From assembly GCA_043799575.1 (NCBI GenBank), contig JAZDNQ010000010.1, forward strand, positions 1 to 37,720: a DNA stretch of 37,720 bases, in the 5' to 3' direction. Below the pieces are notes generated by a model. That model saw only the letters and a list, made by a program, of their open reading frames with translations, searched no databases and was not told the DNA's origin. The stretch's first letter is position 1, and every line of letters begins with the position of its first letter. A program made the translations under genes and the position numbers. The DNA comes from Patescibacteria group bacterium. GTDB taxonomy: Bacteria; Patescibacteriota; Gracilibacteria; JAHISY01. Of this stretch, positions 3,719 to 33,596 are shown piece after piece.

Positions 3719-5191
3719 ATGCCAAAAAAACAAAACAAAACGCTTTTCACAATTCGCAAAATTCGCAATGCTAATCCGCGTTTCCCGCGAATTTATCGTT
3801 CGGTTCGCGAAAGAATTTGGCGCTTTGCGGTCATCCTTTTGCTGATTTCGGCTGGAGTCGCGAGTCTTTTCTTTTTCGAAAATAGTCTCGTTGTGAAAAA
3901 ATTTGAGTCAAATTTAATCGCGGCGGACACGAGCCAGATTCTCGGCAGCGGGTTTCAAACGATCGGCGGATTTACTGGAATTGCCACCAATCCCGGCTCG
4001 GACAAAAAAACTGGTGGCTTCACAGCCAGCGGGATTAAGACAATCAACGCACTGATCTACAACGTCAAAGATTATTTCAAATACATCGCAGGCGGAGTAG
4101 CCGTGCTTTACCTGATTATCGCCGCATTTCAAATCATCATGGCGCGCGACAACGAAGGTATCACCAAAGGCAAAAAGAACTTATTTTGGAGCGTCTTCGC
4201 ACTGGTTTTAGTTTTTGTGGTCGACATCATGGTAATTGCCTTTTACGAAGGCGGCGGAAGCGCGCCCGGCCAAAGTATTTTCGTGGTCAATCCGAACGGG
4301 ACGACTGTCGAAAATCTGACTTTGCTACAGAATATTTCGCTGTATTTCAAAATCAACGCCAAAACAATTTTTAGCTACATCAAAACTTTGGTCGGCGCAT
4401 TTTCAATTTTATTTATCGTTTTCGCTGGCGTACAAATGGTGACGGCAGGCGGGTCGGACGAGAAAATCGAAAAAGAGAAAAAATATTTGATGCACCTCGT
4501 GACTGCTTTTGTCACGATTTTGCTGCTTGATGTAATAATTTTCGGCGTGATTTATCCCGAGGCGATCGATGGCAGCAGCAATCCGGAATGCGCGGAATTT
4601 ATGACTGCGGTCGCAAAAGGCGGTAGTCTCATGGCCGCGCCAGCAGGTTGTCGCTCGGCAGCCGAACTCGGTTTGATCGCCTCAAATCAAATCTTTGGCG
4701 TTGTCCGCTTTTTCGAAACTTTGATCGGCGGCATCGCCATCTTTTTTATGGTTTATTCGGCAGTCGCGATCATCGCGTCGATGGGCGAGGACGACATCGT
4801 GAAGAAGCATCGCACAACTCTGATGTGGAGTCTTGCCGGACTCGTTTTAGTCCTGGTCGCGAATACTCTTATTACGCGATTTTTCTTCATCGTCGACCCG
4901 ACTACCGGAACATCCAGCGTCTCTACAATGACCGGCATTCAGATAATTGCGGGTGTGACAAACTTCATTGCGACTTTTGTCGGTATTTTGTCAGTCATTG
5001 CGATCATCGTAGCTGGCTTCATGTGGGTCGCAAATTTCGGCAGCGACGACGTAGCAGGCAAAGCTAAAAAGGTGATTTTGAGTGCGGTCATCGGCGTGAT
5101 TCTCTCGGTTTCGGCATATGCAATCGTAAACACCATCACAAATGCGAACTCGCATGGTGGAACAGGAACCAATATCGGAGTATCACTTTAA
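3719..5191 (+). CDS. Membrane protein with four tandem VirB2/TrbC-like pilin domains
   Basis: Loops RDNEGITKGKKNLFW, AGGSDEKIEKEKKYL, MGEDDIVKKHRTTLMW, FGSDDVAGKAKKVIL, each between two hydrophobic helices; basic N-terminal leader. Confidence 0.78.
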   Translation: MPKKQNKTLFTIRKIRNANPRFPRIYRSVRERIWRFAVILLLISAGVASLFFFENSLVVKKFESNLIAADTSQILGSGFQTIGGFTGIATNPGSDKKTGGFTASGIKTINALIYNVKDYFKYIAGGVAVLYLIIAAFQIIMARDNEGITKGKKNLFWSVFALVLVFVVDIMVIAFYEGGGSAPGQSIFVVNPNGTTVENLTLLQNISLYFKINAKTIFSYIKTLVGAFSILFIVFAGVQMVTAGGSDEKIEKEKKYLMHLVTAFVTILLLDVIIFGVIYPEAIDGSSNPECAEFMTAVAKGGSLMAAPAGCRSAAELGLIASNQIFGVVRFFETLIGGIAIFFMVYSAVAIIASMGEDDIVKKHRTTLMWSLAGLVLVLVANTLITRFFFIVDPTTGTSSVSTMTGIQIIAGVTNFIATFVGILSVIAIIVAGFMWVANFGSDDVAGKAKKVILSAVIGVILSVSAYAIVNTITNANSHGGTGTNIGVSL

Positions 5192-24584: not shown

Positions 24585-24928
24585 GGCTCGAGCAAACAAT
24601 AAGCCGAGTTTTGTCGTGGACAATCATTTTTCTAAGCGGCGGGAAGCACGGAGTTTGTGTCAAACTTTTTCCGAACTTCCAATCCCGCCTTGCAGCCGAG
24701 AGGGTTTACCACGCTCCCATCTCGCGATGGGGCGAAGGACCTGAGGTCCAACTTTTCACCTTTGGTCCGCTTTTGAACCTTTCGGTTCGCGAGCAGATTA
24801 GTATTGTCTCTGTGGTACTTTCCCTATCCTCACGGACGGTCGCCGTTAGCGACTCTCGTCGACACGTGCTGCTCGGACTTTCCTCCCAATGAAAAATTCA
24901 AAGAGCGATTGTCTCGTTTACTCGAGCC
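24585..24928 (-). ncRNA. rnpB: RNase P RNA
   Basis: Minus strand has GAGGAAAGTCCGAGC near the 5' end and ACAAAACTCGGCTTA near the 3' end (P4); terminal P1 helix GGCTCGAGTAAAC/GTTTGCTCGAGCC. Confidence 0.95.
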
Positions 24929-29620: not shown

Positions 29621-30088
29621 TCAAATCCTAAAATCCTCTCCATTAAAAATGGACTGTTGAAGTTTTTCAATCTCATCTATAAGGTTTATTAAATTTTTAG
29701 AAAAGCTGTCTATATCAGACTCAGCTTTTTCTTCTTTCTTATACAAGAGTCCTCGCTTTCTCTTAGCTACTATTTTTATTCTTTCAATCTCTCCCTCCAT
29801 TTCAGGATGACGATAAAGATGCACTGAATGAAATATCTGATTTCTTTTCTCTTCAGCCTGGCTTAGTTTAACAATCAAACTATCAACTTCTTCTCTCTCG
29901 GGAAATTTATATCGCATAATACAAGAAAGTGCATCTAAAAGATTTTTAAAAGACATTTGTGCAACTGCAATAGCTCCGATTTTATTGTCTTCAGAAATCA
30001 ATCTGGCTAACAAAGCTCCCAGCATGAACTCCACGATAGAAAAATTATGCGCAGCACTACCGATCTTTTCGAAAAATTTTTTTTGCAT
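29621..30088 (-). CDS. Helical protein with HEPN-like Rx4H motif
   Basis: KRNQIFHS motif, N-terminal IG...F..VE helix; AT-rich gene 16 nt past the tRNA-Pro 3' end. Confidence 0.55.
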   Translation of the reverse strand: MQKKFFEKIGSAAHNFSIVEFMLGALLARLISEDNKIGAIAVAQMSFKNLLDALSCIMRYKFPEREEVDSLIVKLSQAEEKRNQIFHSVHLYRHPEMEGEIERIKIVAKRKRGLLYKKEEKAESDIDSFSKNLINLIDEIEKLQQSIFNGEDFRI

Positions 30089-30104
30089 AAAAAATTTTAA
30101 TTTT

Positions 30105-30181
30105 TGGTCGGGGTGAGAGGACTTGAACCTCCGACCTCACGCACCCCATGCGTGCGCGCTAGCCAACTGCGCCACACCCCG
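30105..30181 (-). tRNA. tRNA-Pro(GGG)
   Basis: CGGGGTG acceptor, anticodon arm CACGC-atGGGgt-GCGTG, encoded CCA. Confidence 0.95.
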
Positions 30182-30206
30182 ATAATATTTCTTGAAGAGA
30201 TTTTAA

Positions 30207-30344
30207 AGGACTTGCCCAGCCAGAGGCGGGTCCGCCTCCGGCGGAAACCTCCGACCTTCCCGATGCCCATCGGGACGCGCTAGCCAACCCTGCCTGCCGG
30301 CAGCCAACTGCGGGACAAAATCCAGCCTTCGGCTCCACACCCCG
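30207..30344 (-). pseudogene. tRNA-Pro-derived copy interrupted by palindromic inserts (copy 1)
   Basis: Collinear tRNA-Pro blocks separated by hairpin inserts; no 3' acceptor strand. Confidence 0.8.
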
Positions 30345-30355
30345 ATTCGCGGATT

Positions 30356-31384
30356 TTATTTCTTTTTGAGAAAAAATGCACCGAGTGCACTCGCGAGCGG
30401 CGCAGCCAAAACAAGTGCAAGTGAGCCGACCAAAGTGCGGACAATTTCCTCCGCGGCGAACTCGGAATTCACAAGCGCCCAGAGCGGCTGATTGCCGTCG
30501 ACCGCGAAAAGCAAAATCAGTGGCAACGCAACGCCGGCGTACGCGAGCGCGAGCGTATTCACCATCGACGCGATGTGCTCCCGACCGACGCGCAAACTGC
30601 GTTTGAAAATTTCGCGGCGCGATAAATTTGGATTGGCCAAAATTAATTCGTCGGCAGTCGTCACCTCAGCGACAGTAATGTCGTCCAAAACTCCGAGCGC
30701 GCCGAGCAAAATTCCCGCGAGCAACAAACCTTTCAAGTCGAGATTTTGGAAAACACCGCTCGTAAGATAAAAACTTTCTTCCGTGCCTGTACCAAAAAGT
30801 GATGCGAAATTGGTGAAAAAAATCGCGAGTCCGGTCGAGACGGCGAGCGTCGCAAGCGTCGCGAGAAAAGCTAGCCACGAGCGAAAATTGAAACCATGCG
30901 CGAGAAAAATCGTGACTCCGGCGATCAAAACACAGCCCGCAAGTCCGACCCAAAGCGGGGGATAGCTCGCTGCCAAAGCCGGAATTATTCCGAATAAAAT
31001 CAGTCCGATCGACGCGGCGAGACCGAGCAGCGCGGTGAATCCACGCCAGCCGCCGACCGCGATCAGGATCGCGACGAAGATCGCGACGATCCCGAGCAGG
31101 GCAGCGAGTCGATAATGATCGTAAATTTGCCAAACCATTTTGCCCTCGACATCGAAACGCCCCAAAACAAATTTTTCACCCAAGACCGGTTTTTGATTCG
31201 CCGTCGTGATGAATTCCGGATCAACCTCGACCTCGACCGACCGACCGTCGAGCATTTCGAAAGTCGATTTGTCCTTTTGAATATCGGTGACTTTGCCGAC
31301 TGCGAAATCAAATTCATTATTTTCGGCCAAAGCGAAATTACTCAAGAAAATGAAAAGCGAGATTGCGAGTAATATTTTTTTCAA
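30356..31384 (-). CDS. YibE/F family membrane protein
   Basis: LLLAGILLGALGVLDDITV, VGREHIASMVNTLALAYAG, EEIVRTLVGSLAL. Confidence 0.9.
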   Translation of the reverse strand: MKKILLAISLFIFLSNFALAENNEFDFAVGKVTDIQKDKSTFEMLDGRSVEVEVDPEFITTANQKPVLGEKFVLGRFDVEGKMVWQIYDHYRLAALLGIVAIFVAILIAVGGWRGFTALLGLAASIGLILFGIIPALAASYPPLWVGLAGCVLIAGVTIFLAHGFNFRSWLAFLATLATLAVSTGLAIFFTNFASLFGTGTEESFYLTSGVFQNLDLKGLLLAGILLGALGVLDDITVAEVTTADELILANPNLSRREIFKRSLRVGREHIASMVNTLALAYAGVALPLILLFAVDGNQPLWALVNSEFAAEEIVRTLVGSLALVLAAPLASALGAFFLKKK

Positions 31385-31403
31385 GATTCCAAAACTGACG
31401 AAT

Positions 31404-31431
31404 CCAGCCGAAGCCCGAAGGCGAAGGCTGG
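31404..31431. repeat. Nested palindrome at the tRNA-Pro(CGG) 3' end
   Basis: ccagcc-gaa-gcc-cgaa-ggc-gaa-ggctgg, overlapping the encoded CCA. Confidence 0.7.
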
Positions 31432-31505
31432 TCGGGGTGAGAGGACTTGAACCTCCGACCTCGTCGACCCGAACGACGCGCGCTAGCCAACTGCGCTACA
31501 CCCCG
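31429..31505 (-). tRNA. tRNA-Pro(CGG)
   Basis: Anticodon arm CGTCG-ttCGGgt-CGACG, encoded CCA. Confidence 0.95.
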
Positions 31506-31530
31506 ATGTTATTTCTTGAAGAGATTTTAA

Positions 31531-31648
31531 AGGACTTGCCCAGCCATAGGCGGGTCCGCCTCCGGCGGAAACCGACGACCTTCCCGATGTCCATCGGGAC
31601 GCGCTAGCCAACTGCGGGACGAAGTCCAGCCTTCGGCTCTACACCTCG
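31531..31648 (-). pseudogene. tRNA-Pro-derived copy interrupted by palindromic inserts (copy 2)
   Basis: Near-identical to 30207-30344 but lacking one 20-nt insert. Confidence 0.8.
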
Positions 31649-31667
31649 AAAGTTCGCGAATTTTAGT

Positions 31668-32111
31668 CTAGCGGCGCAAACGCTGCAATTCTTTTTGGAA
31701 ACTCGCGACATCTTTAAATTCGCGATAAACCGAAGCGTAGCGAATGTACGCGACATCGTCGAGCTGTTTCAAGGCTTTCATGACGAGATTGCCAATTTTG
31801 CGCGAATCAACTTCTTTCTCGCCGCGCAGCTCCTCTTCGATCGCGTTGAGAATCAATTCGATTTGATCTTGGCGCACTGGCCTTTTTTGGCAAGCCACCC
31901 AAAGACTTTTTTCCAATTTCTCGCGAGTGAATGGCTCGCGGTTGCCATCTTTTTTGACCACAATGCAATTCGGTGAATCGACGCGCTCGTAAGTCGTAAA
32001 ACGAAAACCGCATTTGAGACATTCGCGACGACGGCGAATCGAATTGCCACCATCTGCCGCACGCGAATCAATCACGCTGGTATCCTCGGCACCACATTTT
32101 TGGCAAATCAT
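31668..32111 (-). CDS. nrdR: Transcriptional repressor NrdR
   Basis: CxxC...VIDSR...IRRRREC..CGFRFTTYE zinc ribbon, ATP cone, VAYIRYASVYREF. Confidence 0.96.
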   Translation of the reverse strand: MICQKCGAEDTSVIDSRAADGGNSIRRRRECLKCGFRFTTYERVDSPNCIVVKKDGNREPFTREKLEKSLWVACQKRPVRQDQIELILNAIEEELRGEKEVDSRKIGNLVMKALKQLDDVAYIRYASVYREFKDVASFQKELQRLRR

Positions 32112-33449: not shown

Positions 33450-33461
33450 ATAAGTTAAGTT

Positions 33462-33566
33462 TGGCGACGCAGTCCGCCGAAGCCTGGGCGAAGGCGGAAG
33501 CTACGAGCGCAAATTGGGAACATTTTAGCGGACTTGTCCGCCGTAGTCTCGAGAGACGAAGGCAGA
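33462..33566. repeat. Two nested palindromes flanking a tRNA 5'-end-like fragment
   Basis: tccgccgaagcctgggcgaaggcgga (33473-33498), tccgccgtagtctcgagagacgaaggcaga (33537-33566), and GCGCTCGTAGCT on the minus strand (33499-33510). Confidence 0.65.
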
Positions 33567-33567
33567 T

Positions 33568-33596
33568 TTGCAGGTGGGGGAGAAAAAAGTTAAAAT
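33568..33596 (+). promoter_or_regulatory. Sigma70 promoter for the structured RNA and rny
   Basis: TTGCAG-17 nt-TAAAAT. Confidence 0.65.

Follow-up and report, generated by a model that had tools for sequence, protein, structure and literature searches.

Palindrome-filled pseudo-tRNAs upstream of two tRNA-Pro genes in a Gracilibacteria genome, probable relics of tRNA-nested nuclease-and-hairpin cassettes

Why do two tRNA-Pro genes of one genome, different isoacceptors in different gene contexts, each follow a near-identical tRNA-like sequence whose arms are interrupted or replaced by palindromes? The question is raised by a contig of 37,720 nucleotides (nt) from a member of the Gracilibacteria (assembly GCA_043799575.1, contig JAZDNQ010000010.1), which is called the window here. 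The window is contig C14 of an assembly (G000, below "our genome") that comprises 930,587 bases in 72 contigs, with 48% G+C, and is 92% complete. We refer to the pseudo-tRNA copies as shadows. We think it rather likely that the two Pro shadows are nuclease-less relics, or non-autonomous copies, of a cassette that joins a small GIY-YIG nuclease gene to palindromic hairpins and nests in tRNA genes.

Anatomy and promoter position of the two Pro shadows

Shadow 1 (30182-30344, 163 nt) lies immediately 5' of tRNA-Pro(GGG) (30105-30181), and shadow 2 (31506-31648, 143 nt) immediately 5' of tRNA-Pro(CGG) (31429-31505), all on the minus strand. The two working genes are called by ARAGORN and score 59.6 and 61.8 bits, respectively, in Rfam.

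Both shadows have the same layout, which was established by reading the strand, by alignment and by locating the individual pieces, and which agrees with the layout described in the initial annotation. A TAAAAT box is followed by nt 1-10 of the tRNA, by a 22-nt double hairpin (double hairpin A; 30313-30334 in shadow 1, 31617-31638 in shadow 2) inserted between nt 10 and 11, and by the D-arm sequence. Exactly at the place of the anticodon arm (nt 27-43) stands the hairpin TCCCGAT-N4-ATCGGGA, with GGGC as its loop in shadow 1 (30258-30275) and GGAC in shadow 2 (31582-31599). The 5' half of the T arm comes next, and a 31-nt double hairpin (double hairpin B; 30215-30245 in shadow 1; TCCGCC..GGCGGA + CCCGCC..GGCTGGG at 31539-31569 in shadow 2) is placed within the T loop. 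The shadow closes with CAAGTCCT, the 3' acceptor strand is missing, and a 25-nt spacer leads to the real tRNA (30182-30206 and 31506-31530). The spacer contains a second TAAAAT (30200-30205 in shadow 1; 31524-31529 in shadow 2, 18 nt before the real tRNA). Shadow 1 alone carries a 20-nt insert in the D loop (30282-30301), composed of half of a CCTGCCTGCCGGCAGGCAGG-type palindrome and a GTTGGCT repeat; this insert was not listed in the initial annotation.

The near-identity of the copies is likewise borne out. In an alignment of just the two shadows, identity is 93.0% over 143 aligned columns, beside 20 columns with gaps; the copies differ by 10 positions and one indel. The full repeat units, from promoter box to tRNA, align at 91% over 184 nt and 91% over 44 nt, and a search of the whole genome with shadow 2 as query retrieves shadow 1 with E = 1.5e-48. 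Position 9 of each shadow is that of the adjoining tRNA (G at one locus, A at the other), as had been noticed before.

No Rfam family recognises the shadows: in a search of 29900-31900 at E <= 10, neither scores as a tRNA (RF00005), the two real tRNAs alone obtain meaningful scores, and five other matches are far below their gathering scores. Compared with shuffled sequences, the RNA of shadow plus tRNA gives z = -1.98 and the DNA of the shadow z = -1.78, which is too weak to argue for a special fold.

The position of the TAAAAT box indicates which of the two copies occupies the original gene site. We derived the -10 element from the upstream regions of the genome's own tRNAs instead of from a scan for the sigma-70 consensus, which, with a -35 hexamer required, does not pick up the TAAAAT boxes. 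In 13 tRNAs, TAAAAT ends 8-12 nt before nt 1, where the chance expectation of finding it in any 40-nt stretch is ~2%. Only one of these 13, tRNA-Thr(TGT), has a visible 5' shadow, and it has a second box before that shadow. At the shadowed tRNAs, it is nt 1 of the shadow that TAAAAT precedes by this distance. At the Pro loci, the box is located 154 and 171 nt before the real tRNA, corresponding to the shadow length plus 11 and plus 8. The box of shadow 2 (31660-31665, minus strand), which we take as the -10 element of the original tRNA promoter, is 11 nt before nt 1, and the box of shadow 1 (30353-30358, minus strand) is 8 nt before nt 1 and overlaps the stop codon of the YibE/F gene. Therefore, of the two copies, it is the shadow that stands next to the promoter, the working gene having been displaced downstream. 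Judging from their place between the original -10 box and the tRNA, the shadows are probably transcribed as a leader.

Shadows and hairpin modules across the genome and the genus

Similar copies accompany many other tRNA genes. We searched each of the 43 tRNAs called by ARAGORN in the genome against its own 800-nt flanks (blastn-short, E <= 0.01 per search), a comparison proposed in the initial annotation, and a same-strand partial copy is present within 800 nt of 20 of them. Reading of the flanks adds short 5' shadows missed by blastn-short. Those of Asp, Asn, Phe and Val-GAC consist of nt 1-10 and then a hairpin, and that of tRNA-His of a shortened acceptor start and then a hairpin of the same kind. 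The copies fall into two kinds, 5' shadows as at Pro and downstream elements of ~120-175 nt (713 nt at Pro-TGG). In most of the latter, the last part is ..GAGCCAGC plus a 17-23-nt repeat of the tRNA 3' end.

The window itself holds a third 5' shadow, absent from the initial annotation, so that three of its four tRNAs are shadowed. It precedes tRNA-Arg(TCT) (33450-33510, minus strand) and consists of an acceptor 5' strand of another allele and a nested TTCCGCC...GGCGGA hairpin: the acceptor reads GCGCTCG in the shadow versus GTCCCCG in the working gene. Relatives of the same genus show where the two alleles belong. In G008, tRNA-Arg(TCT) has no shadow and the gene itself has the acceptor GCGCCCG. 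In G007, a close relative of G008, the same promoter region is followed by an Arg pseudo-copy that has the GCGCCCG acceptor on both strands and the G008-type anticodon-stem allele, with a palindrome after nt 11 and the T arm replaced by a hairpin. Ten bases past this pseudo-copy lies the working tRNA-Arg(TCT) of G007, which has the acceptor GTCCCCG and is identical to the window's gene at 74 of 77 positions and to the G008 gene at 70 of 77. The orthologues of tRNA-Arg(TCT) thus display all states, namely no shadow (G008, G001 and G009), a long shadow (G007) and a short shadow (G005). Because the shadow keeps the resident allele and the working gene differs from it, the working gene arrived as another allele and the resident copy was left as the shadow. 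This evidence that a shadow is the old resident copy goes beyond the initial annotation.

Counterparts of the Pro shadows were also sought in relatives, a further check suggested there, and five of the eight other genomes of the genus have shadows at Pro(GGG) and/or Pro(CGG): G001, G006 and G008 at both genes, G004 at GGG, and G007 at GGG only, with none at CGG. G002 and G005 have the two Pro genes (GGG and CGG) in tandem without an upstream shadow; for G003, the TGG gene alone was retrieved among the Pro genes. The core of the shadow (D arm, anticodon-arm hairpin and AGGTC) is nearly invariant across the five genomes, and the modules around it come and go. G001 has two further inserts, G006 has another D-loop hairpin and lacks double hairpin A, and the T-loop module is missing from G008 and G007. 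No two genomes have the same module set, and within G001, G006 and G008 a single set is found at both Pro loci, whose shadows are 91.8%, 99.2% and 96.0% identical, respectively, which points to gene conversion between the Pro loci or to parallel invasion. Nucleotides 1-10 track the adjoining tRNA in every case, at position 9 in G001 as in our genome, and at position 7 in G008.

The modules keep to fixed places of the cloverleaf. Double hairpin A gives 13 pattern matches in all sequence examined, 12 of them true. In all 12 the module separates nt 10 from nt 11, the pseudo-copies concerned being those of Pro, Val, Ala, Ile and Thr. Five different Watson-Crick stems are seen in its second hairpin, indicating compensatory change. 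This 22-nt module is precisely what distinguishes the orthologous Ala shadows of G007 and G008 from each other. In seven relatives, pseudo-copies of Pro, Val, Ala, Ile or Met have the TCCCGAT hairpin in the place of nt 27-43, with GGAC or its reverse complement GTCC as the loop; these 13 instances were pre-filtered on GGTC after the hairpin, so that their tRNA-like 3' flank is partly by construction. Other arms are substituted likewise. TCCGCC-N2-3-GGCGGA stands for the D arm in the Phe and Asn shadows, and TCCCGCC-N3-GGCGGGA stands for the T arm in the Arg shadow of G007 as well as in 3' shadows of that genome and of G001. In the Ser shadows, the order of double hairpin B is opposite to that in the Pro shadows. 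The use of modules in both orientations favours an element that acts at the DNA level over an RNA motif. The Pro shadows of the window bear the marks of at least three lineages, namely the TCCCGAT hairpin, double hairpin B and half of the CCTGCC palindrome. The initial annotation had offered, as one of its readings, a tRNA-derived element that targets tRNAs; with counterparts at so many tRNAs and in relatives, this reading gains support and extends well beyond Pro.

Palindromes of these types also exist away from tRNAs, among them 5 of 13 TCCGCC hairpins and 2 of 5 CCTGCC palindromes. In our genome, copies of CCTGCCTGCCGGCAGGCAGG and TCCGCC..GGCGGA are located away from any tRNA at C7:25215, C7:25453, C30:24818 and C16:22855. 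In a pattern search across the phylum, TCCCGAT-N4-ATCGGGA occurs in 37 of 401 genomes, compared with 1 of 401 for the reversed control, and is thus over-represented. We dropped this hairpin as a marker of tRNA shadows, because the 32 instances inspected show that it is not specific to them. At one locus (L081; G325 contig C8, at about position 1501), it adjoins sequence resembling the 5' region of 23S rRNA, and hairpins of the TCCCGAT type may also enter rRNA genes.

Small GIY-YIG nuclease genes and related systems

A link between the shadows and a nuclease, of which the initial annotation had no hint, becomes visible in G006. Where the window reads NrdR, shadow, tRNA, the orthologous site of G006 reads NrdR, shadow, an 88-amino-acid (aa) open reading frame (ORF), second shadow, tRNA-Pro(CGG). 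The ORF, at 3975-4241 of locus L030 on the minus strand, encodes a single GIY-YIG domain (PF01541, E = 3.8e-17), for which the nearest solved structures are the UPF0213 proteins 1ywl and 1zg2 and then, more weakly, Slx1. The nuclease gene is present at this site in G006 and absent from it in our genome, G001 and G008. In G002 and G004, a 5' shadow and a similar ORF precede tRNA-Pro(TGG), and in G002 a 3' shadow follows the tRNA as well.

Small genes of this family are linked to tRNA genes. PF01541 matches at five places in our genome; one is an ORF of 705 aa, and the four small ones, those on contigs C57, C61 and C20 among them, are all within 263 nt of a tRNA. The gene on contig C61 is situated between two Ser(CGA) shadows, with double hairpin B on both sides, and another has a Ser(GGA) shadow on one side and the corresponding tRNA on the other. 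In the genus as a whole (nine genomes), PF01541 has 53 matches, 9 in ORFs of 674-718 aa and 44 in small ones. Among the 28 of these 44 small loci that were inspected, a tRNA is found within 263 nt in 20, at 405 nt in one and at 1142 nt in one, and 6 have none in the locus; by our own estimate, from ~45 tRNAs per megabase, random sites would show such closeness in ~3% of cases. Among 11 loci in other phyla that encode relatives of the G006 nuclease, 7 have a tRNA no more than 155 nt away.

The nucleases also go with particular palindromes. When the 28 proteins are clustered at 50% identity, the Pro-linked cluster (cluster D, three members) has TCCCGAT-N4-ATCGGGA upstream in 3/3 and downstream in 2/3, a Leu-linked pair has CCTGCCTGCCGGCAGGCAGG upstream in 2/2, and seven of a cluster of eight have hairpins of the TCCCGAC, TCCCGAT or TCCCGCC type. 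In G006, in G002 and at the C61 gene of our genome, each nuclease gene has one and the same hairpin on its two sides, an arrangement that the window does not contain.

REP/BIME elements with RAYT proteins and IS200/IS605-type elements are known to combine short GC-rich palindromes, which spread within a genome, with a small nuclease that reads hairpins. The sequences described here share both features with these systems and differ from them in that the modules are tied to tRNA positions. A link to Y1 transposases was looked for and not found: our genome has two Y1_Tnp-like ORFs, and their flanks of ~550-720 nt hold other palindromes and none of the shadow hairpins. The ORFs, of ~200 aa, are located at C42:18912-19082 and C20:20028-20261, and the one on C42 contains a 29-nt palindrome within its frame. 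Nor do the shadows fit duplication of an integrase att site, with an integrated element between the tRNA and the repeat: only 25 nt separate shadow and tRNA, and the 5' rather than the 3' end of the tRNA is repeated.

The closest likeness among described systems is to the Ssn proteins, site-specific nucleases of single-stranded DNA that cut next to the NTS/SRM hairpins flanking their genes (Chenal et al. 2025; PMC11893778). As in the main text of that work, the gene encodes a single-domain GIY-YIG protein of ~90 aa and has a short GC-rich palindrome on either side, and the palindrome changes along with the nuclease; the palindrome core here (TCCCG...CGGGA) resembles the NTS core (PMC11893778). 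One cluster of three nuclease ORFs in the genus, which has no tRNA neighbours, has flanking palindromes that resemble the Neisseria NTS, and one of its loci has a true SRM match. Unlike Ssn genes, the cassettes here are nested in tRNA genes, are accompanied by pseudo-tRNA copies and supply a spare tRNA; the main text on Ssn never mentions tRNA (PMC11893778). The published degenerate SRM pattern, for which our regular expression matches 24 of 24 NTS consensus variants, has no match in the window, 4 in the genome, and a match at 1 of the 28 genus loci, in the cluster without a tRNA link. The likeness suggests that the cassettes work like Ssn/SRM, and they are candidate members of that family. 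In the NTS-like cluster, two ORFs (L128, G002 contig C75, and L140, G006 contig C15) have an additional stretch within the frame, which at L128 coincides with a full match to the SRM pattern; a hairpin seems to have been inserted into the nuclease gene itself at L128.

Two further systems share other features. SegB is a free-standing GIY-YIG homing endonuclease whose gene is part of the tRNA gene cluster of phage T4 (PMC2330249). In the account of SegB, as here, GIY-YIG genes lie between tRNA genes, their presence varies between relatives, and the incoming allele is preferentially inherited along with its flanks; SegB is a larger phage protein, described without hairpin-substituted pseudo-tRNAs (PMC2330249). 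The elements here are, by contrast, chromosomal and bacterial and are found at many different tRNAs. The presence or absence at one site among close relatives that characterises a homing cassette is observed for the nuclease gene of G006, for the Pro shadows missing from G002 and G005, and for the Arg shadow, which G007 has and G008 lacks. The mORFs of fungal mitochondria import a foreign gene end, beside which the native one persists as a remnant (PMC3630166). They too supply a replacement for the displaced part of an essential gene, and the unused native remnant keeps the resident allele, as at tRNA-Arg; in the description available, they affect the 3' ends of protein genes in organelles, and no hairpin modules are reported (PMC3630166). 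Here, in contrast, the targets are tRNA genes, the remnant is upstream, and arms are replaced by palindromes. A resident remnant beside a foreign working allele, as with mORFs, is found for tRNA-Arg(TCT) in G007, by comparison with G008, and in the window. Literature searches, supplementary files excluded, brought up no description of tRNA-nested GIY-YIG/hairpin cassettes; the tables accompanying PMC11893778 list the flanks of Ssn homologues, among which tRNAs may appear.

Origin of the shadows

According to the explanation that we favour, a shadow would be an older, promoter-proximal copy of tRNA-Pro, put out of action by the arrival of a small selfish cassette within the gene. Cassettes of this lineage would comprise one or more GC-rich palindromic modules, which either have fixed insertion points in the cloverleaf or stand in for an entire arm. 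Often they would also include a gene for a single-domain GIY-YIG nuclease of 78-126 aa, and they would bring a new working copy of the tRNA, complete or limited to the 5' part, equipped with a separate TAAAAT box. Of the two tRNA copies, the downstream one is the one that works. With the nuclease gene gone from both Pro loci of our genome, the shadows there would be relics or non-autonomous copies, and gene conversion, or repeated invasion from the same set of modules, would keep the two loci alike. By analogy with the action of Ssn nucleases on single-stranded DNA, the nucleases may bind or cut at their own palindromes; the break would be repaired from a cassette-bearing copy, through homing or gene conversion, and transcription would make the shadow a 5' leader, which RNase P would cut off and which would then be lost.

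Several observations weigh against this explanation. Neither Pro locus of our genome has a nuclease gene, and the 92%-complete assembly contains no close relative of the Pro-linked clade, the best tblastn matches having 34-40% identity. Most shadows in the genome are without a nuclease gene, so that the nuclease could be a later settler and not the cause. The nuclease clusters are small (2-8 members) and the genomes are related, which makes the pairing of nucleases with palindromes suggestive rather than proof, and in a UPF0213-like cluster of eight, a GC-rich flanking palindrome is present in 4/8 and is of a shadow-hairpin type in one only. Phylum-wide, 10 of the 32 inspected instances of TCCCGAT-N4-ATCGGGA are within 300 nt of a tRNA gene. 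Finally, nt 1-10 of the Pro shadows match the adjoining tRNA, so that the allele argument made for Arg cannot be repeated at Pro.

The chief rival, which we consider unlikely, holds that independent miniature palindromic elements insert at preferred tRNA-like sites and survive only in redundant copies, the GIY-YIG genes being unrelated neighbours or secondary settlers. It would account for the prevalence of shadows with hairpins and no nuclease gene, for the palindromes away from tRNAs (the TCCCGAT hairpin included, phylum-wide) and for modules in either orientation. It does not account for the pairing of nuclease clades with particular palindromes or for the same module on both sides of a nuclease gene, and the only other candidate mobilisers, the two Y1-transposase-like ORFs, lack these hairpins in their flanks. 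A related suggestion of the initial annotation, that the shadow is a sink for palindrome insertions, holds insofar as hairpins do pile up in the redundant copy, and fails insofar as they take fixed cloverleaf positions (12/12 for double hairpin A) and are tied to nuclease clades. Going further than the cassette explanation, one may suppose that the cloverleaf is itself the address: the mini GIY-YIG nucleases would read single-stranded tRNA genes through their arm hairpins, the cassette would swap the D, anticodon and T arms for its own size-matched cognate hairpins, any tRNA gene would be a landing site, and the pseudo-tRNA would be a working part, as a handle or immunity site, and not a scar. 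We regard this idea as doubtful.

The remaining alternatives place the shadow under host selection, under none, or in the assembly. A functional structured 5' leader or a decoy tRNA-like RNA, also raised in the initial annotation, would fit the place between the -10 box and the tRNA, the pairing kept by compensatory changes, the nearly invariant core around the anticodon-arm hairpin in five genomes, and the replacement of arms by hairpins of similar length, which keeps a cloverleaf-like outline. Such a role is nevertheless improbable and finds little support in the comparison, because whole modules are gained or lost between close species and are used in both orientations, the 3' acceptor strand is missing, no Rfam family matches, the folding z is only about -2, and G002 and G005 have no upstream shadow and G007 none at CGG. 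A plain local tandem duplication of tRNA-Pro that decays neutrally and was copied once to the second locus is more improbable still. It would explain partial copies beside their parent genes and nt 1-10 that track the neighbour, but not why the pseudo-copies of further tRNAs, and further genomes, have these hairpins at identical tRNA positions. A single local event without counterparts, which the initial annotation had named as the outcome that would undo its reading, is contradicted by the copies at 20 of 43 tRNAs, by the relatives and by the nuclease gene at the orthologous site in G006, and the arms are replaced precisely rather than eroded at random. An assembly artefact comes to mind, as the genome is metagenome-assembled, is in 72 contigs and repeats are hard to assemble; we give it hardly any credence, because five other, independent assemblies of the genus carry Pro shadows and the two copies in the window differ in sequence and in gene context.

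If the cassette explanation is true, a large share of the tRNA genes in these ultra-small bacteria would have been remodelled by a selfish nuclease-and-hairpin system that keeps its host alive with a spare tRNA. What remains of the old gene, ruined and patched with hairpins, would stand between the promoter and its replacement. The recently described hairpin-reading GIY-YIG nucleases would gain a second lifestyle, nesting in tRNA genes, and a class of sequences that tRNA finders and annotators skip would be explained. The system would also provide a route for the exchange of tRNA alleles between related genomes and offer small, possibly structure-guided nucleases for testing.

The surroundings of the Pro loci include the following features. 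The gene order on the minus strand is RuvB, NrdR, tRNA-Pro(CGG), YibE/F membrane protein, tRNA-Pro(GGG), a 155-aa ORF without a family, and MatE. The four real tRNAs are all of the ARAGORN calls in the window, and a bacterial RNase P RNA of class A is encoded at 24585-24924 (minus strand; 182 bits). Directly 3' of tRNA ends, at about 31396-31428 and at 33532-33569 (minus strand), the window has a GC-rich nested hairpin of the form ..CCTTCG..(inner hairpin)..CTTCGGCTGG... The same nested hairpin recurs at many tRNA 3' flanks throughout the genome, and one of its type is found inside the D loop of the G001 Pro shadows.

The downstream elements directly 3' of tRNAs are located on contigs C19, C20, C25, C31, C36, C57, C66 and C30 of our genome (loci L100-L107). 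Most begin with a terminator-like hairpin, and they share conserved blocks such as GGCGCGTGCCGCC or GGGGCGACCCG. A search of eight of them against Rfam gives no match beyond the tRNAs; in appearance, they could be integrated elements of miniature size or a small RNA not described so far. An element of the same type lies 3' of tRNA-Pro(GGG) in G009. Pseudo-tRNAs also form tandem arrays, at L045/L046 (G006 contigs C39 and C7) and L052 (G010 contig C6), with 93-nt 3' units after tRNA-Val(GAC) and three 82-nt 5' units before tRNA-Met, the latter with a GIY-YIG gene among them.

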